A DNA stretch of 56,732 nucleotides, counting the filler, from Piptocephalis cylindrospora (taxonomy: Eukaryota), in the NCBI GenBank assembly GCA_003614145.1. It is 4 parts of 4 records of this genome, joined end to end, with 100 filler letters (N's around TTAATTAATTAA, not from the genome) between each part and the next. Parts side by side here need not be neighbours in the genome. Positions count along the whole stretch, not along the records: positions 1 to 14,163 come from KZ987927.1; 3 more parts are not named here. One strand, written 5' to 3'. Within the stretch, counting starts at the first letter, position 1. The number at the start of each line of letters is the position of its first letter. The notes under the pieces are model-generated. The model saw only the letters and a program-made list of their open reading frames with translations. It ran no database searches and was not told where the DNA came from. The position numbers were made by a program, and so were the translations under genes. This document shows, in pieces, positions 1-44,100 of this stretch.

Positions 1-904
1 GGGGGGGGTAATGAAGGGTCCCGGTTCTTATAACGGTACTCTTATAGTTTAATCCCTGAAGTTATTTAATGATCAGTTTATATTTGCTTTAATTCTTGCT
101 GATCGTGTTGCCCTTGCGCTTCTAGTGTATTTTATTTCATCAAGTATGGTTCCCCGGAAGAGGAGTGACGAAAAAAAGAGTCCATAGTGGTATAAATACT
201 AGTGCACTTTCGTGAGGCCGCGCATGTTGGATTGATCTTGGCTGTTACCATTTGGAGTACATTAACGGCCTTAGGGCTAGAAAGAGGGAATGACGGTCTA
301 ATTACCGGGCATGTTCAAAGAGAGGGTGTATCAAGGCGGAGGAAGGGTAAATTAGAAGGGGGCGATTGAGGAGAAGAGATACGAGAGAAAGGAATCGAGG
401 ATATAGAGCGGTAAAGGTGATTTACATCCTTATCTATTATTAGGCCAGTAGTGTAGATAAGGAAAATAAAATTGTTCTTCAAGGAAAGCGTACAGCCCAG
501 TAAAGATGGAGATCATGATGAGTTGGCTGGGAGAGGCATCTAAGACTATTGCTTTTTCCCTCTGTAAAATAGTAGCCTAATCAATCTACTAGTGCTATCT
601 TCTCAATCATCTAGTCACACGCAGAAGAGCAAAGGTATTGAGAGGAAGAGAAAATGGGTCTGTGTATATTCTGCATGGATTGGCCCTATACGTAGTGCCT
701 CTTGGACGAGCTAAGGAAGCACCATTCACAATACAGAAAAACTAGGCAGACAACCATAGGGCCGATCTCATCCCCAAGAGATCCTATCCTCCTTGATACA
801 CCTATCGGGTAGGGTTCCGGTAGGAGCACCATCAGATAGGCAATAAAGGTAACGGCTTCATCGTTACCAAGTGGATAATGACCAGGATAATGCTAGTCTC
901 ATCA

Positions 905-3900
905 TCAGGAAGAGCGGGAGGAAAATCGTGAAAAGGAGAAAATTCTGCTCAACAACGAATCTCTCGACATTCTCGTGGGCTTCTGGGCGCCTCTGGAGGC
1001 CTCGGCATAGTTAGCTTCACGCTTGATGATAAATGATCTCTTCTAAAGTACATAAGACGATAGGGAATTCAGAGATTATAGGCATCAAAGATAGAGAGAG
1101 AGGTGTGAGTGATTAAGAGACACAATTCATGGAGCGGCCACCATCATCTGAAAGTACGATACCTTGGTAATACCAAATGCCCTCTTCGTCTTGCCGAGTA
1201 GCTTGTTGAAGCGCTATATTCATGATGGTAGGGCATAAAGTAAGTGGATTGTTGGTTAGTTGGTAAAGTCGTTAGTATAGGCTAGAGGGTATTTATATGA
1301 AATCAACACAGCTGCTAGATGACCTACAGAAGTCTTTGTCTACATCATATCAATTATAAATGATTGACGATTTAACTAGTTAATGAGTGGATATTATACA
1401 AGGATACCAAAACCGCTGATCAGCTTACCGGAGTGGTTGGCTACATTACATTGTATGAATTCTAGACGGTTAGTAATGAATTGGGTGAGAGATCGAGAAC
1501 TACCAATTGACTTACCAATTCCATTGGCTACGTCATATTAATTATGGTTGATTGGTAATTCCAACAGTTAATGGCAAGTTAGATGAGAGCACCAAAACTG
1601 TTGACCGACTTACCGGAGTGATTGCCTATATCGTATTAACCATGGGTGGGAGGGAGCATGGATGGTTGAGGCGGATAGTGATTGGGGATTAAAAGGAAAG
1701 GGAGAATCAATGAGTGGTAAGGAGACAGTTGAAGAGAGGGGGTGCATGCAAAGTAGACAACTCCCTTCTAAAAGCCACTCTTCTTCAAATCCCCCAATAA
1801 GCCTACAATTTTCCGAGCGTTCTTGACAGCATTCTCGATAGGATCAAGAATTTTCGATAGATTGGGATCTTGATTCCTCATCCTCATGATGTCATCAGAG
1901 AACTTTGCATATTTTACCTCAGCATGTGCAGTAGCCAATGCAGATGATTCCGATGTGATTTTCGAGTATTCAATGAGCAGCTCGTTCCTTTTCTAGTCAA
2001 TGTGGAGGCGCAGGAACACCAGTATAAATGAGTGCATAATTAGGCTGTGAAAAAAAATGGGAAATCCTTCATCAGACTCCTCATCCCTCTGATTAGTCCT
2101 TATCCATTTACCTTCTCAGCTTCCCGCTTAACGGATATCTGGTCAGTTGCAGGTAATTTCCGAGCTACTTTCCACTCTTCATTGATCAGCTTATTATGTT
2201 CCCAATCAATGCGGAAGCGCGGGGACATCAGTATAGATGAGTGCATAATTAGGCTGTGAAAAATGGGGATTCCTTCACCAGACTCCTCGTCTCTCTATGA
2301 TGAGTCTATATCCACTTACATTATCGGGACGGGCTTTGGGCAAGGTCATTCCCTGATTTTGATCCTTTAAGGTGGCGCCAGCTACATTAGAGAGAGAATG
2401 ACAAAGATGCTTAGAGGATAAGGAAAAGGAGGAGGGAAGTACTCGATAAATTCTTATATATCTTACACTTTTGACTATTCGTGTTCTATCAAGTGTAAGG
2501 ATGAGAACATGATGGGAGGGTAATGGGATGAGAGGGTCCTTGACAGAGATTTGTGGAGGTGACAGAGAGATCAAGCAGTAGTTTACTCCTCAAACGTTGC
2601 CTTCCATCTATATCAAGCAAGGGGACATATCTCACGAGGTGTGTAATGTAAGTTGACTTACCGGTTTGTCCATGACGAGAGGATAATAACGATCACCAGG
2701 AAAAAGCTCATCAGGCATGCTCTGTATCAATTGTTTAAATAAACGAGATTTTTCAGAATCATTCAAGTCCTTGATCAATGGATCAGCCTTAAATGCGTTG
2801 TTTCGCTCTGTAGAGGTTGGTCTGATCTATTATTTAGAGTAGCGTCAAGGCGCATCACATGATGGATGGTGGTGGATATGTAAGTAAAAGGTGGAATTAA
2901 GAATAATGTAAGAAGAGATTGTGCGCATCTCTCCTACATCCATGAACAATCCCACATTCCCCATCGCAGCTGTATGACCTACATACAATGCGATGATCAT
3001 CTTAGAACCAAGAGCACCTACATTTTCGTTAAATATAATTTTGATAAGGCTATCTTGCTCGGCGTCCGTGAGATCTGAAATGTCTGTGATCTTCGACCTG
3101 CTGCCTGTGGGCTTGTCGATCTATTATTATTATAATTACCAAAGAAAAGTGGATATCGGTTTTTGTAGGCGGGTGAGTATTATCCACTGGTAGCGCTAAA
3201 GCGCGATGACGACGGATCTTATTATTCAAGGATCAATCTCTTTTCGTCAATGGGAAATGCCCCTTGGACGAAAGAGGTTCACCAAGTGTGAAAGCGCTTT
3301 GTGGGCATACAACCGTCTATCCATTGCCTCCGCGATAGATCATCAGCAATGGTAAATAAGAAAAGCTTACATCAAGTTTGGTTGTATCTGTACGTCCATT
3401 CACGGATCGTGGGGCCGCTTGGGGGTTTGTCTGTCTCTGGGATTCCGTCTGCAATTTATCCTAGTGGTGATGATATAGAAGCGGAGCGTCAGTAAGCAAA
3501 AATAAATAACTCTGATTGATTAGAACATGCACACAGATTTTATCAGACTACTTGATAGAGTCGTCTCTCATCCGGAGAAGAGAACTGGGCTTTTCTAGAA
3601 AGCCGCAATATGCCTTTCCCTCCACACACACTGAGAAATTCATCCTAAAAACGCAAACGCTCTTACCTTGGCGATTCGGCTCCTCCCAAATGCTTTGTCT
3701 AGCTTGAGGTTCATTTCCGAAAGCTGCTACGGAAGCAAGGAAGATGTGAATAATGTGAATCCTTTCGAAAGAAGGAAAAGTGATTGTGCGTCTCCATGTA
3801 CGCCCTCTCTTCAATCCAGGAAGAAAAGAAGCATCTACAAATCAAAGAAAATACCTTGGGGTTCCCTAAAGGCTTGGCATCATCAAGTGCTAAACGTGCC

Positions 3901-5756
3901 TTATCAAGGGACTATATGAGTGTTGACGAGCATGTGAAATTGAAAGATCAGTGAGCATTGAGCTAGCTAAAATTATATCCTGGATCAATGAACCTGATAC
4001 GAAATAGGTTATGAGGCGTCTGCGTCAACTTTACTTACCTTTCTAATGTAATCCATTGACATCTTGTAATTATTTATAGGGCATAGGAAAAGTGAATGAA
4101 AAGTATTAATTAGTGAGATTAGACAGGAGTGTCCCGTGAAGCATGTGTAAAGCCAAACCTGTGATTACCTTTGCGGCCAAGCTCGGGTCCTTCTAATTTA
4201 AAGAAACATGATTTAGAAAAGAGTGAGTGAAGGTGTTCATGAGAAAAAAACACACACACCCGATCAACTATATCGTTCTAGTGCTATCCCAATTGTTTTT
4301 GCACCACTGCCATTACCTCAATATCATCCAGTCGCCGGGTAGCCCTGGCCAAATGCTAATAAGCATATAGAAGGAATGAACAAGCTCATTGTAAGTCATC
4401 CAAGTCCCAGAAATCTTAACCATTGCCGTAACCAGAAATTACCGTATTGAATTTCTTGACATTTTGCTGCTGTTAATCGATTATAGTGGGTTGGAGAAAT
4501 GAGCTAACAATTTCAATGGGCTACTCATTCCAATAACGAATTACCTGTTCTGGGGTTACCTGTTCTGGGGTTAATGTTTCCTCTTTAACAACAGGAGTTT
4601 TCGTCTACCGTGCATTTTGGGGGGTTGTTATCCGAGAGAGTAATAGGACAATCGAGAAGGTTTCACGTCCATGACACAGGATGATGAGGGTGGTGTCGTT
4701 AGTGAATAAATTCTCCGAACCATTGATGCGTATTATATCCTTACGTTGTCGGGTTGGCGATTCTGTGTCACTTTCGTGTTGGTCTTCCTCTTTTCGGTAT
4801 TCCCGACAGTAACTTTTTCTGGTTCTTTGTTGGTAATCTATGAAGCATAGATGGGTATCGTAATAGGATGGGGTAAGTGAATGGTCACCAATCATTTCTA
4901 CCCTATACGAGATGCTGAGCATTTCAAGGCCTTTTATATATAGCATTGTGGCTTACCGTGTTTTTACCTGGAGAGGGCTTCGAATAGACATGGAAAGGCA
5001 CATTGGGATCATCTAAGGGTAGAAGACAATAAGAAGCCACACCTTATCAAAAAAAGCCTCGAATGCTGCTCAAAAAGGCTAAAAGGATCAATGAACCCAT
5101 GAAAATAAACATACCGTGACTGGCGAGTTGAGGTTCCTATACAGCATACATAAGGAGTTTTTTTAAGTAGTTAGATTTTAGTACAATCCGAACAAATATT
5201 AAACATTCATTTGGACTCCCGATCCCCTCAAAAAGAGGTATGAGGAAGAAAACTTACATATTGCTTTAGTGCTGATTCATTTATGTACAATATGCGCAAG
5301 ATACCATATATCGAGGAGGAAGATCGAGGATAACCGATCAAAAAAGGGACGAGAAAATGAGTATTTAAATGACATGACCATGGGTTTATGTGATCCAGAA
5401 AAAAATGATTCCTCAGAAGATCACATCCCAACGAAATAGAAAGCCGTGCGCTTGTACCTCATATAAAGATAAAGATCCCCTACCCGCACGCCATTAATGT
5501 GAAAAAAGGTAGTGTACTCACCTGGGTGGACTACCACTGGTTTGGCGCCTCCACCAGGGACTGAAGCTATGAACAGAGGATAGGCCGTAAGTGAACCTGC
5601 TAATTTACTTTTATCCCCTATTCACGTCATGATATTGTATCCGCACAGGTCATCTGCATGGGAAATAAAGATGTACTCACCATGTCCCGGAGAAGGGGCA
5701 ACAATAGGATGGGCGGCCAAGCAGGCCACGACGAAGATGAGAGCGGTGACCTTCAT
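905..5756 (-). CDS. Secreted protein of unknown function, ~25-26 exons with many micro-exons (~484 aa; ~514 aa with the doubtful exon 2201-2112)
   Basis: Hand-spliced model with GT..AG boundaries and no in-frame stops. Exons: 5756-5681 (signal peptide MKVTALIFVVACLAAHPIVA), 5566-5522, 5271-5258, 5136-5115, 5012-4957, 4837-4745, 4604-4545, 4469-4443, 4355-4317, 4192-4169, 4062-4039, 3911-3855, 3726-3667, 3460-3371, 3120-3022, 2826-2662, 2485-2467, 2381-2320, [2201-2112, acceptor reads TGG], 1992-1807, 1625-1614, 1527-1516, 1440-1429, 1339-1328, 1213-1163, 1042-905 (ends ...SFSRFSSRSS*). Intron phases are consistent throughout; individual exon choices remain uncertain. Confidence 0.7.
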
Positions 5757-8700
5757 GGTGACAACTGAAAGGAGACGTGTGAGGCCGGACCAGACGAGAT
5801 TGGATGATAGAAAGGGATTGATGGTTGGGATCGGGTGAGAGGTTGCTCAAAGTCAATCTCAAAAGACGATACGGAGGTGGTGCAATGGGCAGAAGCGGGG
5901 AGAAGATCAAAGGAGCGGTGCGAGACTGTATAATTTGGAGGATGGCCAGCACAGAGATGAGAAGGAGGAGGAGAAAGAGAATGGTTTAAGAGAAGGCTCG
6001 CAACAGGATGTGAGTAGGGGTGTTGGAAGCTGGAAGGGATTGCACCAGGCAATGCACAGCAGCAGGAGGGATAGGGAGAGTGAGGAGGAGGAAACGAGAG
6101 GAAGGGGAAGGTCGCGAGGGCGAGGAGGAGGAGGAGGAGGGAGATAAAGTGGGACGGGAGGGAAGATGGCGAAGGAGAAAGTGCGAGGAAGAGCGGGAAT
6201 TGGTGAAAGGAGAGAGAATGGGTATAAATAAAGAAGGGAGGAGTAGGCTTCGCAAGATATGCTTTATCGGACCTTTATACCCAGTGGATCGGTCGAGGGT
6301 TCTCGCCTCCCAAATTCGGTAGAACGAGTGACTTGAGGAAAGCAGAGATTTCCAGGGTCCCGATTACGGAGTTTGAACAAGAAGATGAAAGGTCATTCTA
6401 TCAACTCAGTCTATGCTATTAGCTTTGCACAGTGGCCGTTACATGGGAAAATCCGAGTTTGAAAAGGCACCTCCGCTCCAGAGCAGCATCGTCGTCGCTC
6501 TCCCTCTCGCCGCAGTATTCGTTGTACCTTCCGTCCTAATATTCGGAGCTTATTCAGCGTGCTTTTTTACCATGACTTTCGGAGTTTGAGACAGAAAAAT
6601 TATACAACCGACCAGCCATAATGTCCGCAGTTTACCATTGTTCTCTCTCTCCTGACCGCTTGGCACTTTATAATCTTATGGTGTCTACGGGTTTCTTCCT
6701 TCCATGATCTCTCCTCTCCGCCCTCCATCGGAGGTGTACGATAGAGAGATATGCTGATGATTGTGGAGTGGATTTATTGTGATCCATCGCTAGATCGGCG
6801 GAACTGGATGGCAGATGCCTGGTAAGGATATGTAAAGAAAGGGATGTAGGTTCTGGGAAGTGGGATAATTGAGGATGACAATAATGATGACTAGAAAAGT
6901 GGGGAAATGAGATGACTTATTTCTCAGAGAAAGACGTACCAGAGATGAAGGAAAAAATCACAGGGGGGGTTTAGAATTCTACTTCAGTTTCCATCTCAGT
7001 TTCTATCATTCTCATCTTCATCTCCATTCTAGTCTTCTCATTTTTGACCCTTCTACAGAAGGCGGTCTTCCTTTGGTTCAAGTGCCTTTCAGCATGCTTT
7101 TACGCTTCTCTTCCTCCTTCAGAGACCCAGTCAGTTGGTTCGGATAGGGAAAGGAGTAATGTCAGAAGGTTGGGCCTGAGTGCTATGGGTCTCTATCCAA
7201 CGGCCAAAATCAGCCCCTCTAATCTCAAACAACGATTAGGTAGTAAAGTACAGCTTGGTGTATCCATCAGGGATCAGAGAATTCCAAGGCGCCAAGGAGC
7301 TATCTAGATGGACTACCTATAAAACGGATTTATCCCGCCCGGGATTTGAATGGTTTATCGTGCATTCAAGCCCTAGGCAGATGTGTCCTCGCCATCTACC
7401 CCAGATTAGATGCATGAGTACTCCATACACTTCTCATGTACTCGAGTCCCAGCAATTGTGCATGAATCACTGCCTTACCGCTTGAATGATACCCGTCGCG
7501 GTCTCAGTCTTTAGCAATGATTCAGGGAATATATCGGTGAAGAGTACGACCAAACTAGGCCCAGTTCTTTTTGGCTCACTGCACTCTTCTTGAGCCATCA
7601 CATATCCATCGTATATTTTTTGGATCTTTAACTTCTTCTTAAATCCCGCCCTCTTCCCCATCCTCTTTTGTATTGGTCCTGAAGACAAGCAATAATCAAA
7701 TTATCATAAAAAACATTTCTTGTAGGAATTGAGAATGCTTTTCTTTTGACTTGTACTTTCCTGGGTACATACTGCGAATGCTCTATTTACAGGGCGCTTC
7801 TATGAATAGACATCCCTTCCATTCCTTTTTTCCTATACACATCTACCCCAGCGGAGGCCAAAGTATGACGAAAATATGATGATAATAAAATCGCTTTGCT
7901 TTCCTTCAACAAAGTAGGCTGACAGGTATCCGAGCGCAGTATTCATTTGAACGGTTAGCATGCGCATGCATGAGAACAGTGCCTAATGAACAGTAATTCT
8001 CATCAAGGTGGTGTGCATTCTGATATTTTATTTATGTAATAAAGGATGTGATTTTAACGGTTTAAAAATATTCTCTATCTCTACTACTGATAAAAGAGTG
8101 AGTTATTATTGGTATTATATGTTGAGTGTCAAAGGAGCATATGGCATGGTCACCCTGGTACCACACAGGCCGGCTTAAGGGTGGGTATTACGTTCGGATA
8201 TCCATCAGCCTACCCCACCTAGGGAAAATAGAATGGGCTCACTATTACTACAGCATATGATATGGTCAACATCTGTGTAGTTATGTAGAGATACAATATC
8301 TGCCATAAGCACTCATCCAATATGCATACACTCAACCGTTTCACTTGTCTCAGAGCATAGCCTTGGGCGTTGTGGTGATTAGAAGCGTGTGCATCATCCT
8401 GACTGCGAGGTTAGTGGCTAATTATAGTCCTTGTCCAACACAGGAATCTCCACTTTTCTCCAAGTTTAGTACGGCACACTCACCTATGCATGTTGCATTC
8501 TAGGCTTATCCAATGGTCCCATATGCACCCCAAACCTCCTACCCTCTGAACCAATCCTGCTTAATCAATCCTGGGCACCTCTTTCGTCCTCCTCCTCACT
8601 TGCCTTGCGCCTTAGTCACAGCGGGTGTGCGTACGCACGCGTTCACTCCGCTTAGACATAAAAAGGATTAGGCTTGGCAGGCCGTGCCCATCTTCCTCCC

Positions 8701-8863
8701 TTCCCCTCTCCTCCCCTCCTCCCCGCTTCCTTCCTTAACTGCTCATTTCGCGTTCGTAAAGTCGTCTCTTCGTGCCCAGTTCCGTCCCTACGTTAGTTCT
8801 TTCGTATCCAAACCTTCGTGCCCCCTAGCTCTTTAGCCCGTTCATCAGTTTTCTTTTGCCTAG

Positions 8864-9008
8864 GTAGGTCATCTGCGAAGGATATACGGTGGTGCATTCT
8901 GAGCGCTAGCTTTGATTTTTTTTACCGCCCCTTGGAGGCGTGTGAGCTTGGGGCTTGAGGGTGTGCTAATCTAATCATCCCTTCTCCCCTCCCCTCGCCC
9001 CTACCTAG
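8864..9008 (+). other. Probable 5'-UTR intron of the kinase-like gene
   Basis: AG|GTAGGT donor at 8864, GCTAAT branch-like motif, pyrimidine tract, and TAG acceptor at 9008 (or 9012) just before ATG 9017. Confidence 0.5.
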
Positions 9009-9016
9009 CTAGCACT

Positions 9017-11564
9017 ATGTCCCACGTCACTCCCGAGAATTTGTGGAGCGAATCCAAGAAGACCATTGAGGTCTTAGAGCAAGCCCCTGTCCAGACCGAG
9101 TCTCTGATTCAGCTCTGCGGGGTATACCGGCGCCTAATTGCCCGAGAGCAAAGGATTGATCAGTTGGATAGCATGGCTATCGATCTGCTCATTGGACTGA
9201 CGGAACCTCTGCAGGCCCTGGTCAGTCATGGTGATCTGGTGGAATGCACCTCTTTGGACTCTCTTACGGCTGAAGGCCTTGGGATTGCTCAGGGCTTGCA
9301 AAAGTTTCTCCTCAATTACCATGCCCAGGGAGTCTTGTACCGGGCGTGCAACTGGATCAGCTCCTGGAATGAGCGGTCGGTTGAGACTTTTCTGAACCAA
9401 TTGGATGGATTTGATGACGGGGTAATCCGATACATCGCAAAGTACCTCCGCGCCCCAGCTTCCATTGACAGACCTGAGCGGGAGAGGCAGTCGAATGGAA
9501 TAGCACTGGAGGGAAAGGTGCAAGAGGAGGATAAGGTTCAAGTGGACGACCTTCCCGATGTGGGCGCCGCCCCTGGCCCCAAGTTTAACCCTCGTGATGG
9601 TAAGTGACATGAGGGATTCATCTGTATGCTGACTCTCTGCTCCACTCACCTTTCCCTCTCTCCTTCCCCCCCTCTCTCCTCCCCCCCCCTCTCTCTCTCT
9701 ATGTGCTATTTACTTTCGATAGACATGTTCACAGGGTCCCTTCTCGGAAGAAAGTTTGTCCTCCTCAACACTCCCATCTTGGGAACCTCGGACGCGGATG
9801 TGATTTGGAAGGCTAAGAATAAGAGGATTTGCACGGAGGTGGCCCTCAAGTTTTATCGGGTCGAGGAGCGCTTTGAAAAGGAGTGTCAAGCGCTCAAGGA
9901 CCTTGGAAGCGCCGAGTGCAAGCACATCCCCACCATCATCACGACGTTCAAGGGAAAGACAGAGACTGAAGGATGGGAGAGTTACAATTGCCTAGTGATG
10001 GACTTTTGTGAAGTTCCGCTATCCGAGTTTATCCATCAAACTCGAGGTCCAGAGCTGACCATCCACTACATCAAGATGGTGATTAGTGATATTTCCGATG
10101 CTCTCTTGGCGGTTCATCGGACAGGTTATGGTAAGTAAGCCGAGAGGGATTGTAGGAAGGTCTTGCCTCTCTCTAGAGTCAGCGTCTCATCTAACAACAC
10201 ATCCTTTCCTCCTCAACCACCTCCCATAGTGCATTGCAATGTTAAGCCCGAGAATGTGCTTCAAAAGAGGAATCCTGGCGCCTTGGTGCCCACATGGATG
10301 CTTGTGGACTTTGATTCGGCCACCCGGATCAACGAGCCCATGAGGATGACAGGAGGAGTCAACTATGTGGCACCAGAGGTGGCAGAAAATGAGCTCTTGG
10401 ACCAGGAGAGCACAGCATTCCCTGCTATTGATGCCTATGCACTTGGCCGGATCCTTCAGTTCATGATGACACCTATTGGATGGTGGCCCCGGGTGAAGGA
10501 TACGGATGAAGAGAAGATGCGATATCTCTCAGAGATGACGGAGATCAAGGTGAAGCAGACTGGGAGCGTGGATGAGCACACGGCTCGCGCAATCAACCAT
10601 CTAATCCACCGGGATCCCGATATGCGTCGGGACATTGAGCGGTTCCGGAACAGTACGTTCATCGGAGGAGGCAGCGATACAAAGGAGATGGATGATCTAA
10701 AGAAGGATACCGATGTGGCCAGGGCGGTGCACCAGCAGATGAAGACCATGCAGAGCAGTGTGGGTAACATTAGCCAGGGTATGTCGGACATTAAGCTTGG
10801 AGTGGATACGGCGGTGAACAAGATGGATGACATTATGGACAGTGTGCAGGCCATGCGTAACCAGGCATTGAACATGGCCGTGAATGTCGTTCCCCGCCTC
10901 TTCCTCCTTATTCCGGATCCCTCGAGGAACATCCTTAATGTGAGCGACTGGGGCCGAGACCATTTCACCTTTGTGTTCATGTGCGAGTGCGAGAACCCTC
11001 ATCCCGGGTACCATCCCGGGTACAAGCTGTCGGAGCCCAAGAAATTCCTGGTCAAGTACGGACCGCACATCCGACTGGTCCTCCAAATGACTTTAACCGC
11101 GGTGTCGGTGGCAGGAAAAGTCGCAGGCATCCCAACACTCTTCCCCCCCGGTACCATGGATGCGCTTCAGTCTATTGGAAAGAGCGGGGAGGAGCTCTTT
11201 GCTCGGGTGGAAGCGTTTAGCAAAAAGCTTGCGGTCATTGGGACCGAGTTGGACAAGGCCAGCGTAGTGGATCCGGTGATGAGTCAGACGGGTGGACAGG
11301 GGAAAAAGGCCTATGGTACTTTTAGTGAGAAGGATATGCGCGCCATTGAAGGTAAGGCTTTTGCGGATATGTGAGACGTGTGGCCCATACTCATGATCCC
11401 CTTTCCTTCTTCCCCCCTCAGCTTACCTTGAGAGCAAGGACCCGAGCCGGAGTCTTGGAAACCTTCGTCGGTGCACGCATCGAAAGTCCGGGGCTGTGAG
11501 ATGGCTGTGTGATGACCATCTGGATAGTGGCGAATATCTTGTGGCGAATACCGAGGAGGAGTAA
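9017..11564 (+). CDS. Protein kinase-like (probable pseudokinase) with helical N-terminal domain, coiled coil and conserved C-terminal domain
   Basis: Exons 9017-9599, 9723-10130, 10230-11351, 11422-11564. Kinase motifs: VALK, HCNVKPEN, DFD, YVAPE, DAYALG. C-terminal motifs: VPRLFLLIP, FMCEC, HPGYKL..P..F...YGP, LGNLRR...G.VRWLC..H. Confidence 0.85.
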
Positions 11565-12829
11565 GAGGATGAATTACTTGAGCTAAGCTAGCGGGGGAAG
11601 GGAAAAAAGACGGGTATGGGATGGTCAATGGGATACCAGTGAGATTGATCATGCTTGCTTTTGCCTCTTGATTGTGGTTTGATATGATTAGTGTCTAGCT
11701 GGTCCTCTTCATCCTTTGAACGATGCATTGGAATGACCCGGCATTTGTTTCCTAATGGGATATAAAAAAACACGATTCAATCTTATGGACATCTCAATAA
11801 AACACCTGATCATCCAATCTGATGGGACGCCTTTGCAATGAGACGTGTTTGTGACATAATGATTTGTCGATCTTCGTCATAGAGTACACTGCTACTCCTT
11901 CCCTGTCATTCAAGTGGGTGATTCAATGCAGTCATCATGTCTACTCTAGACTAACCAATGGACTTGAGCCCAAAGGTCAAGCTGGCTGAATGACGTCGAT
12001 TGATCATGGTAGTGTGATGGAATCAGGAGTCATCCTTTTTTGCATCCTTGCTCTGTAGGACAAAGCGCCCTCTTGCGTGTTGGTGGAGGGAGGGAGGAGG
12101 CCCTTTCAAACCAGCCGCACATCAGCCCAACCTCTAGTGCCTCCCTCGCACATTTGTCCCAGCAACAGCCACATCCTTCCAGTGCGTGTACACGACTGTG
12201 TGTGCTCCCCCTCTTCTTCTCCCTCCCCCTCCTCCTGCTCTTCCTCTACACCCACACACACTACCCATTTTTTCCACACCCACCACACACGCGGTCGTCT
12301 CTTCCCCCTCACCTTCACAAAGCCCCATCTTTCCGTCACCGCCCGGCGTCCCACTGCTCGCTCCCAGCCCTCTCTCTTTCTCTTTCTCCTTCCCTTCTCC
12401 CTCCCTCCTTCCTCTCCTTTTCCTCCCCCGTCTCCTCTATCAGTACCTGAGCACCACCCCCTGGTGCTTCCCTTGCCCACCATTCTGCGCTCCAAGCCCC
12501 CGATCCTTAAGCCAGCCATCCATACGCCGGCCTACTTGATCCTTCTTGTGTCGGTCCTCCTTCCTTTTCTTTTCGTCTCCGTCTACCGTCCCCATCACCC
12601 CGTGGTCCCAGGTACCACATCCTCTTCCACCACCACGTCCCCTGCTCCGCCTCCTCCTGCTGCAGCTGAGGAGCCCGCCAAGCAGGAATCATCCACCCTC
12701 GCGCCCCCCTCTCCCTTAGTGGATCCCAAAGTCGTTCTGGAGGACATTGCTGAACAGGCTGCCCTGAAGCGCGCAGCCGCCACTTCTGGCACCTACAAGG
12801 GCCCCAACAACTACAACGTCAACCCCAAC

Positions 12830-13922
12830 ATGACCAGTGTTGCCCGGGTGTACGCGAACGTCCTGACCCAGGAAGACCGAGAGTACTGGGATTATGATAA
12901 TGTCCAGATCACCTGGGGTTCCCAGGAGAATTACGAGGTCGTCCGGAAGATCGGACGTGGCAAGTACTCGGAGGTCTTTGAGGGTGTGGCTATCCCCGCT
13001 GACCCGACCGAGCCGCCTCGTCGGTGCGTGATCAAGGTGCTGAAGCCGGTGAAGAAGAAGAAGATTAAGCGGGAGATTAAGATCCTGCAGAATCTCTCGG
13101 GTGGCCCCAACATTGTCCAGCTCCTTGACGTGGTGCGGGACCCCACGTCCAAGACCCCGGCACTAATTTCGGAACACGTCAACAATCAGGATTTTAAGGT
13201 TTTGTACCCCACTCTGACGGATATGGACGTCCGGTACTACATCTATGAGCTTCTCCTTGCCCTGGACTACTGTCACTCTAAGGGTATCATGCATCGGGAT
13301 GTCAAGCCCCATAATGTCATGATTGATCATGAGAAGCGGCAGCTTCGTCTCATCGACTGGGGCCTCGCCGAATTCTACCATCCGGGTACGGAGTATAATG
13401 TCCGTGTGGCTTCTCGGTACTTTAAGGGTCCAGAGCTTCTCTTGGACTTTCAAGAGTACGATTATTCTCTCGACATGTGGTCTCTTGGCTGCATGTTTGC
13501 TGGCATGGTGAGTTCTATCTTGAATTACCTTTTTATCCTTCTCCTTTTGGGGTAGGAGGGTGCACCGACTTACCCCAACCTACGCGTAGATCTTCCGTAA
13601 GGACCCCTTCTTCCACGGCCAGGATAACTATGACCAGCTGGTCAGGATAGCTCGTGTCCTCGGGACGGATGCCCTGTTCCAGTATGTGGAAAAGTACGAG
13701 ATTGATCTGGATCCCCAGTACGATGACATTCTGGGTCGGTATCAACGACGACCCTGGGAAAAGTTTGTCACGCCCGAGAACCAGAGGTACATCTCCAAGG
13801 CGGCCCTGGACTTTCTGGACAAGCTCCTTCGGTACGATCACCAGGAGCGACTCACTGCGCAAGAGGCCATGGAGCACCCCTACTTTGCCCCCGTCCGTGC
13901 TGAGCGCGAGGGTAAGATGTGA
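12830..13922 (+). CDS. CKA1: Casein kinase II catalytic subunit alpha
   Basis: MTSVARVYA...[56 protein letters not shown]. Exons 12830-13507 and 13590-13922. The first in-frame ATG is 12830. Confidence 0.97.
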
Positions 13923-14074
13923 GTTGGAGTGTAGGGTCTATCCTGGTTCTGGGATGGCTAGAGTGGTGTTGGTGTGTGTGTATGGCGTGTGTGGCTGTCA
14001 CGAGAGACTCAATGGATGTGAAGAGGATTTGTCCATGTGTTCTGTTATCGCTTGAAGAATTCAATGTGATTCAT

Positions 14075-14105
14075 GTGTGTGTGGTGTGTGGTGTGTGTGT
14101 GTGTA

Positions 14106-14163
<58 letters not shown>
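14075..14163. repeat. (GT)n / (ATGTGT)n microsatellite at contig end
   Basis: Directly visible; abuts the N-run. Confidence 0.9.
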
Positions 14164-14263
14164 NNNNNNNNNNNNNNNNNNNNNNNNNNNNNNNNNNNNN
14201 NNNNNNNTTAATTAATTAANNNNNNNNNNNNNNNNNNNNNNNNNNNNNNNNNNNNNNNNNNNN
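14164..14263. other. Artificial contig linker (N-TTAATTAATTAA-N)
   Basis: N-runs flank a six-frame-stop spacer; the same structure occurs three times. Confidence 0.95.
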
Positions 14264-28419: not shown

Positions 28420-28519
28420 NNNNNNNNNNNNNNNNNNNNNNNNNNNNNNNNNNNNNNNNNNNNTTAATTAATTAANNNNNNNNNNNNNNNNNNNNNNNNN
28501 NNNNNNNNNNNNNNNNNNN
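28420..28519. other. Artificial contig linker
   Basis: N-TTAATTAATTAA-N. Confidence 0.95.
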
Positions 28520-42584: not shown

Positions 42585-42683
42585 NNNNNNNNNNNNNNNN
42601 NNNNNNNNNNNNNNNNNNNNNNNNNNNNTTAATTAATTAANNNNNNNNNNNNNNNNNNNNNNNNNNNNNNNNNNNNNNNNNNN
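42585..42683. other. Artificial contig linker
   Basis: N-TTAATTAATTAA-N. Confidence 0.95.
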
Positions 42684-42721
42684 NCGAGAGACCTCTGGCG
42701 GGGGTGGGGGGGTGGTCGACG

Positions 42722-43995: not shown

Positions 43996-44100
43996 GTGAG
44001 TGAGTGAGCGAGTGAGTGAGTGAGCAGTGAGTGAGTGAGTAGTGAGTGAGTGAGTGAGTAGTAAGTGAGCAGTGGGTGAGTAGTGAGTGAGTGAGTGTGA
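43996..44100. repeat. (GTGA)n imperfect microsatellite
   Basis: Directly visible. Confidence 0.9.

Follow-up and report, generated by a model that had tools for sequence, protein, structure and literature searches.

The minus strand of a stretch of Piptocephalis cylindrospora DNA (Zoopagales; assembly GCA_003614145.1) carries, from 5756 down to 905, a predicted gene of 26 exons. Two comparisons, one of a tandem duplication inside the gene and one of a second copy of its 5' part, show its exons to have diverged further than the non-coding sequence beside them. Its product is probably, in a judgement we hold with modest confidence, a secreted, cysteine-free, basic, helix-rich protein of the host interface, diversified in DNA over generations and not by splicing. 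The window (the whole stretch analysed, 56,732 nt) consists of pieces split by paired 44-nt runs of N (14164-14263, 28420-28519, 42585-42684). Physical linkage to the gene therefore extends over bases 1-14163 only, and genes beyond 14163 are not shown to be its neighbours.

When the minus strand is spliced, an ATG at 5756 opens a frame of 514 codons that reaches a stop at 905 with no internal stop. The original prediction had claimed about 26 exons in a stop-free frame from this ATG, which was borne out, and the internal exon lengths it listed from 4837 onward were reproduced exactly (Table 1); its estimate of a ~484-aa product has to be raised to 514 aa. Donors are GT in all 25 introns and acceptors are AG in 24. 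The sole non-AG acceptor is the GG before exon 19 (2201-2112), from which the exon measures 90 nt; the nearest downstream in-frame AG (AAG, 12 nt on) gives a 78-nt exon in the same phase. For each of the four 12-nt exons the acceptor is the only AG candidate within its interval. The model is uncertain at exon 26, at the acceptor of exon 7, and at the donor that follows exon 20.

Almost all GTRAG words on the minus strand (14 of 15) are donors of the model, with a mean of 5.5 and a maximum of 13 in 500 shuffles. Twelve of the 17 branch-like CTYAC words on this strand sit 12-65 nt before model acceptors (p = 3e-4), and CTYAC-like words are also found in the introns of other window genes. The plus strand has 17 GTRAG words, an excess that arises because GTRAG is the reverse complement of the CTYAC word. 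Throughout the window, branch-site-like words in introns are often CTYAC or CTCAT, not the usual fungal CTRAY. A chain finder that uses generic splice signals only, with weights set after the region had been seen, begins at 5756 and recovers 23-24 of the 25 donors and 16-18 exact introns. Its score was 56.7; 60 shuffles gave 10.7 +/- 4.0 (maximum 23.7), and the plus strand gave 25.7. It put exons 8-10 in a different stop-free frame (phases 15/4/5); the frame there therefore rests on the annotation and the predicted fold, not on stops. Acceptors picked blind to frame agree with the model in 16 of 24 cases (9.1 expected) and give exon lengths divisible by three in 16 of 24 (p = 9e-4), as do 19 of the 24 internal exons of the model itself. 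The gene model is not a product of chance, and the gene is real.

The architecture differs from that of the other genes in the window, for which 10 of 14 finder models (20 introns) served as the comparison set, with 4 doubtful ones left out. Phase 0 is found in 21 of 25 introns of the gene and in 7 of 20 introns elsewhere (Fisher p = 0.002), and the median intron measures 119 nt (range 75-250 nt) versus 73.5 nt. Other window genes have 0-4 introns according to a rough finder; the range originally given for housekeeping genes was 0-7, and the contrast itself stands. The median internal exon is 48 nt long. Taking 36 nt as the cut-off for micro-exons, 10 of 26 exons qualify and make up 11.5% of the coding sequence, while exons of at most 81 nt (19 of 26) make up 44%. 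Exon G+C is 46%.

The gene was originally described as hidden, which it is not: the public annotation covers the locus as hypothetical protein BJ684DRAFT_15762 of Piptocephalis cylindrospora (P0002, 506 aa). This protein contains 23 of the 26 model exon peptides verbatim, including all four 12-nt exons. It departs from our model in a shorter exon 7, a longer exon 15, and an end formed by read-through of exon 25, and it sidesteps the GG acceptor via a 25-nt intron. The annotation gives no function and mentions neither the architecture nor the second copy. What was already known is thus the gene as an annotated hypothetical protein; the tandem duplication of an intron with its exon, and exons that diverge beyond their flanks, are new.

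Searches for relatives of the full protein returned only P0002 itself (E-value 0.001; 1.84 billion cluster-representative proteins), as did searches among proteins of 278-886 aa (7994 candidates scored; the searches spanned 5.8 billion proteins) and a search of longer proteins with exon 20. Residues 1-200 had no match among shorter proteins; searches with the N-terminal part covered proteins of up to 886 aa. Metagenome contigs gave no match by protein or by a 27-nt pattern, and ESM Atlas features gave no usable match. Seven single exons matched 0 Pfam families, and the whole protein had two sub-threshold Pfam hits, none at the curated cut-off. As to a multigene family, run X2 has one second copy (paralog or diverged allele), and neither the protein searches nor the rest of the window contained a paralog. 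Literature searches retrieved no paper on effectors of zoopagalean mycoparasites, nor any that describes, for Zoopagales, a secreted-protein gene with micro-exons or, for fungi, a counterpart of the schistosome micro-exon genes (MEGs).

The first of the two comparisons comes from within the gene. Intron 18 together with exon 19 repeats, in tandem, intron 19 and the first 90 nt of exon 20. Among 300 intron pairs the two best-matching are 18/19 (z 36) and 21/23 (z 16). Introns 21 and 23 are likewise duplicates, and copying produced at least part of the array of 12-nt exons. Introns 18 and 19 are identical at 99 of 116 aligned bases (85%). Exon 19 and the start of exon 20 share only 47 of 90 bases (52%; null expectation 24 +/- 4), which differs from the introns at a Fisher p of 2e-7, and their differences fall on codon positions 1/2/3 as 18/14/11. 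Phase-0 units can be copied or lost with no shift of frame, and duplication therefore accounts for the exon symmetry, at least in part, without skipping. The GG acceptor of exon 19 lies in one of the copied units, which seems to be on its way to being trimmed or lost; runs X1, X3, and X4 have no other base there in their contigs. The resemblance that intron 18 shows to the 3' half of exon 20 (6/1000 shuffles) was dropped, as intron 19 gives 107/1000. A weak peptide likeness between exons 15 and 16 (9/2000 shuffles) is the best among 120 exon pairs and hence suggestive only.

The second comparison comes from the contigs of sequence runs X1-X6, which were compared with the locus. In run X2 a second copy covers 5224-6069 in three contigs of depth ~4, beside the main copy at depth 8-13; run X1 shows one copy. 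Non-coding sequence of the two copies differs at 39 of 374 scorable bases. Exon 3 differs at 8 of its 14 bases (p = 4e-5), with 4 of 5 codons changed and acceptor and donor unchanged, and the mature exon bases as a whole differ at 12 of 43 (p = 0.003). Exon 2 of the second copy has an in-frame 3-nt deletion. Within signal-peptide residues 1-20 six codons are changed, five of them silently and one conservatively, while in the mature part 6 of 6 changed codons alter the residue. In this small sample from one low-depth run, the mature part evolves faster than the signal peptide.

Upstream, the second copy joins a single 3650-nt contig, and it could therefore represent a paralog or an allele that has diverged. 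PMC6784888 gives three of the four Zoopagomycota studied as non-haploid. The second copy ceases to align at 80% below 5224; divergence or an amplification chimera may be the cause. At 5650 the window has the base of the second copy, where run X1 and the main copy in run X2 differ; this suggests that the assembly merged both copies at that position.

The protein is likely secreted, as originally claimed: by hydropathy and by eye, its sole hydrophobic stretch is N-terminal (15-residue hydropathy 2.46, and at most 0.74 after residue 25), and the first ~20 residues likely form a signal peptide. The N-terminal part of the protein is long, of low complexity, and rich in Pro, Thr, and Lys. The mature part has no Cys, an isoelectric point of 9.8, no C-terminal hydrophobic anchor, and two N-glycosylation sequons. 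As regards the criteria applied to fungal effectors, the product is predicted to be secreted, is lineage-specific, and belongs to no Pfam family at cut-off. KREA occurs at the end of exon 19 (2112-2135) and near the start of exon 26 (1010-1030). We take this word to be similar to a Kex2/Ste13 processing site, and the protein might be cut into modules there.

Folded alone, a 91-residue segment that begins at the end of exon 7 and runs into the start of exon 14 is predicted from the single sequence to form a three-helix bundle (predicted local distance difference test, pLDDT, 90.8; predicted template modelling score 0.80). Junctions 8/9, 11/12, and 13/14 lie inside predicted helices, exon 10 corresponds to the first turn, and the amphipathic register of hydrophobic residues is continuous across junctions 8/9 and 11/12. 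Structure comparison matched the bundle to the spectrin/plakin repeat, SNARE Habc, BAG, and MIT (Z-scores 9-11, root-mean-square deviation 2-3 A, 81-91 residues aligned). A spectrin-like bundle is among the top matches (Z 11.0, deviation 2.1, 88 aligned), and a V-SNARE-family cluster reaches a template modelling score of 0.82. Sequence identity to the spectrin, Habc, BAG, and MIT bundles is 3-22%, and the Z-scores are below the level meaningful for helical bundles. Foldseek with the bundle found no match reaching an E-value of 0.001.

A possible internal repeat between exons 8-13 and exons 20-25 is a lead only: the domain-level alignment is not significant (217/2000 shuffles), and just the hand-picked pair of exons 13 and 25 gives 1/2000. 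Both of these exons (3667-3726 and 1163-1213) have AFG equally far into the exon, which hints at a second three-helix unit with the four 12-nt exons as its loop.

The course of events that we favour would run as follows. Phase-0 exons would accumulate through the copying or loss of units that leaves the frame intact. Under selection by the host the mature protein would change rapidly and the signal peptide would be conserved. Most exons would be constitutively spliced in and would build at least one three-helix bundle, which would bind a host protein. Splice variation, if any, would likely be confined to the linker: the four 12-nt exons, exon 19, and alternative ends at the weak 3' donors. Of the effector reading in the original prediction, a secreted orphan with mostly symmetric exons and signs of host-driven diversification stands; its combinatorial splicing is the part taken up among the alternatives below.

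Several results weigh against diversification by the host at the level of DNA. Between exons 19 and 20 the proportion of nonsynonymous differences (0.50) exceeds that of synonymous ones (0.41), which favours such diversification, but this comes from 30 codons with no significance test. Silent sites differ at 0.41 and the introns at 0.15; because silent sites also exceed the introns, the contrast could also stem from gene conversion that homogenises the introns. Fast change does not extend to every exon, as micro-exons 21 and 23 are identical at 10 of 12 bases. The second copy is known from low-depth contigs (~4x) in one run, and the cluster of differences in the 14 nt of exon 3 could conceal a misaligned indel. 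A gene finder with a codon model trained on housekeeping genes of the window missed the gene and reported only a 44-aa read-through of exon 1. The structure model of the whole protein is poor (pLDDT 48) except at residues 101-190, and the amphipathic register is broken at junction 19/20. Since the predicted bundle matches spectrin, Habc, BAG, and MIT equally, it names no family; it resembles many unrelated three-helix bundles. Gene model and secretion are deduced from genomic sequence, and a role in the host from lifestyle and sequence pattern.

The leading alternative is a MEG-like system, in which symmetric exons are skipped in combinations and each individual makes a pool of related secreted proteins. 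Computed on the model, 19 of 24 internal exons can be removed singly without a frameshift or a new stop, and the surplus of phase-0 introns points the same way. The four 12-nt exons form a linker that could vary in length, the acceptor of exon 19 is broken, exons 20 and 25 are followed by weak donors, and a conserved signal peptide with a fast mature part is also described for MEGs (PMC4350168). We nevertheless regard such a system as unlikely. Duplication alone can account for the symmetry, introns measure 75-250 nt, and exons of at most 36 nt contribute little of the coding sequence. Skipping of exon 8, 9, 11, 12, or 13 would cut the predicted bundle helices, and the position of junctions inside helices therefore argues, as far as the model goes, against free skipping. 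Exon skipping is also rare in the fungi studied: its share of alternative splicing events is 0.5% in Coprinopsis (PMC12230235) and, according to a study that proposes intron definition, 3% across fungi (PMC3925392), zoopagalean species not being among those seen in either source.

A broader version of the skipping model would be a cassette-built effector system: secreted helical proteins would form a family in which frame-neutral exons undergo duplication, hypermutation between introns that stay conserved, and combinatorial skipping. We find this version doubtful to a similar degree. If true, it would supply a variable protein pool against the non-self recognition of the host fungus and would be an independently evolved fungal counterpart of schistosome MEGs, in a kingdom where exon skipping is rare.

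Relaxed selection on a young or decaying orphan gene is less probable still. Exons would then drift, gene conversion would keep the introns alike, and the lost acceptor of exon 19 would mark the onset of decay. The failure of the housekeeping codon model, the exon G+C, the silent-site divergence of exons 19 and 20 beyond that of the introns, and the lack of a relative among 5.8 billion or 1.84 billion proteins (length-limited searches included) all suit this account. Against it, 514 codons and 25 junctions are free of stops and frameshifts, the second copy preserves frame, splice sites, and signal peptide, and drift would not focus changes on a 14-nt exon.

We see a slim chance that the product stays on the surface of spores or hyphae as a structural or adhesive protein and is not delivered into the host. 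The predicted signal peptide and the long Pro/Thr/Lys-rich part would fit, as would the spectrin-like match, though such matches are common for helical bundles. Usual fungal wall proteins and mucins differ from a product with no Cys, no C-terminal anchor, two N-glycosylation sequons, and a basic isoelectric point. Finally, the chain as an artefact of GT/AG picking in intergenic DNA can practically be dismissed: the model is known from DNA alone and GTRAG words are as numerous on the plus strand, but these mirror CTYAC words placed before model acceptors, the chain score lies far above the shuffles, the annotation agrees, and the changes in exon 1 of the second copy follow codon position as expected of coding sequence.

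Table 1. Features of the 26-exon gene and its upstream region in the window. Positions are those of the window.
Feature	Position	Strand	Description
Exon 1	5681..5756	-	76 nt; ATG and predicted signal peptide of ~20 aa; phase-1 donor
Exon 2	5522..5566	-	45 nt, phase 1-1; Pro/Gly/Val-rich
Exon 3	5258..5271	-	14 nt, phase 1-0; hypervariable between two copies
Exon 4	5115..5136	-	22 nt, phase 0-1
Exon 5	4957..5012	-	56 nt, phase 1-0
Exon 6	4745..4837	-	93 nt, phase 0-0
Exon 7	4545..4604	-	60 nt, phase 0-0; shorter form in annotation
Exon 8	4443..4469	-	27 nt (24 nt via tandem acceptor); start of helix 1 of predicted three-helix bundle
Exon 9	4317..4355	-	39 nt; remainder of predicted helix 1
Exon 10	4169..4192	-	24 nt; predicted turn between helices 1 and 2
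Exon 11	4039..4062	-	24 nt, AAG acceptor; start of predicted helix 2
Exon 12	3855..3911	-	57 nt; remainder of predicted helix 2 and loop
Exon 13	3667..3726	-	60 nt; predicted helix 3
Exon 14	3371..3460	-	90 nt; end of predicted helix 3 and predicted disordered linker
Exon 15	3022..3120	-	99 nt; weak peptide likeness to exon 16
Exon 16	2662..2826	-	165 nt
Exon 17	2467..2485	-	19 nt, phase 0-1 (pair with exon 18)
Exon 18	2320..2381	-	62 nt, phase 1-0
Intron 18	2202..2319	-	85% identical to intron 19; ends GG where intron 19 ends AG
Exon 19	2112..2201	-	90 nt from GG, or 78 nt from AAG before 2189; tandem duplicate of the 5' 90 nt of exon 20
Intron 19	1993..2111	-	duplicate of intron 18
Exon 20	1807..1992	-	186 nt; predicted helices; read-through at weak donor would end at stop 1768
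Exons 21-24 (array)	1328..1625	-	four 12-nt exons: 1625-1614, 1527-1516, 1440-1429, 1339-1328; Pro/Thr-rich linker
Exon 25	1163..1213	-	51 nt; predicted helix; annotation reads through to stop 1127
Exon 26	905..1042	-	138 nt with stop; absent from annotation; least certain
Second-copy stretch in run X2	5224..6069	-	~90% identical; paralog or diverged allele
TATA-like word	6274..6279	-	followed by long C/T-rich stretch upstream of ATG; putative promoter

The neighbouring gene at 9017-11564 (+) is divergently oriented and encodes 751 aa with 3 introns and a protein kinase domain. Its N-terminal 194 aa had no match; the kinase domain is followed by a helical stretch and then by a C-terminal region without a Pfam match. 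The catalytic loop looks degenerate, reading HCN where protein kinases usually have HxD. In another piece of the window a (GAGT)n simple repeat at 44001-44100 accounts for a cluster of donor-like words and is not a gene.

Contigs of runs X3 and X4 were considered as RNA and rejected as such: they are unspliced through introns 16-19, contain strand-switch joints, and were read as amplified DNA. A loose end on a contig of run X4 is presumably a transposase adapter. Contigs of run X6 align only at 570-767, and those of run X5 align nowhere on the locus. At 1-150 and 570-767 runs X2 and X6 have very deep short contigs (depth 1000-3000) with strand switches, which suggests that the scaffold ends near a hairpin element or a repeat of high copy number.

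The gene is a real, annotated but unexplained orphan of unusual architecture with a likely arms-race signature, in a little-studied biotrophic mycoparasite whose genome is reported as ~73% complete (PMC6784888). It offers a concrete effector candidate in which conserved signal peptide and introns are combined with fast mature exons, likely the mark of such a race. It shows how a gene of 25 introns can grow through unit duplication in an intron-poor genome, and even without skipping it is a clear example of accelerated evolution at the level of exons. It also suggests gene architecture as a guide in mining the lineage for effectors.

Among known systems, conotoxins and snake phospholipases A2 have conserved signal peptides and introns around hypervariable mature-coding exons. 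By analogy the present gene would share this pattern with such venom and toxin families, which are animal, mostly short and Cys-rich or enzymatic, and have few exons, while the gene described here is fungal, Cys-free, and has 26. Among fungi, ~9% of Coprinopsis cinerea genes are reported to have an internal exon of at most 15 nt, and in that exon-rich genome omission of such exons would add a stop in 835 of 1,165 genes (PMC12230235). Micro-exons in Coprinopsis are therefore mostly not frame-neutral, whereas the exons here are, in a window whose other genes have 0-4 introns.

In schistosome MEGs micro-exons are reported to make up as much as 75% of the coding sequence, with skipping shown in transcripts (PMC4015677), and most exons are given as 15 nt long between introns of 0.1-5 kb (bioRxiv 2023.06.21.545858). 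The present gene differs from them in its small micro-exon share (11.5%), its longer median internal exon (48 nt), and its introns of 75-250 nt, as well as in being known from genomic DNA, not transcripts, and in encoding a large protein with a predicted folded bundle. There is no sequence relationship to MEGs, as this is a fungal gene with no relative at an E-value of 0.001 among 1.84 billion proteins. What the two share is a signal peptide, many symmetric exons, no known domain, a fast mature part, and a parasitic lifestyle. The gene is not a MEG, but it may evolve like one.

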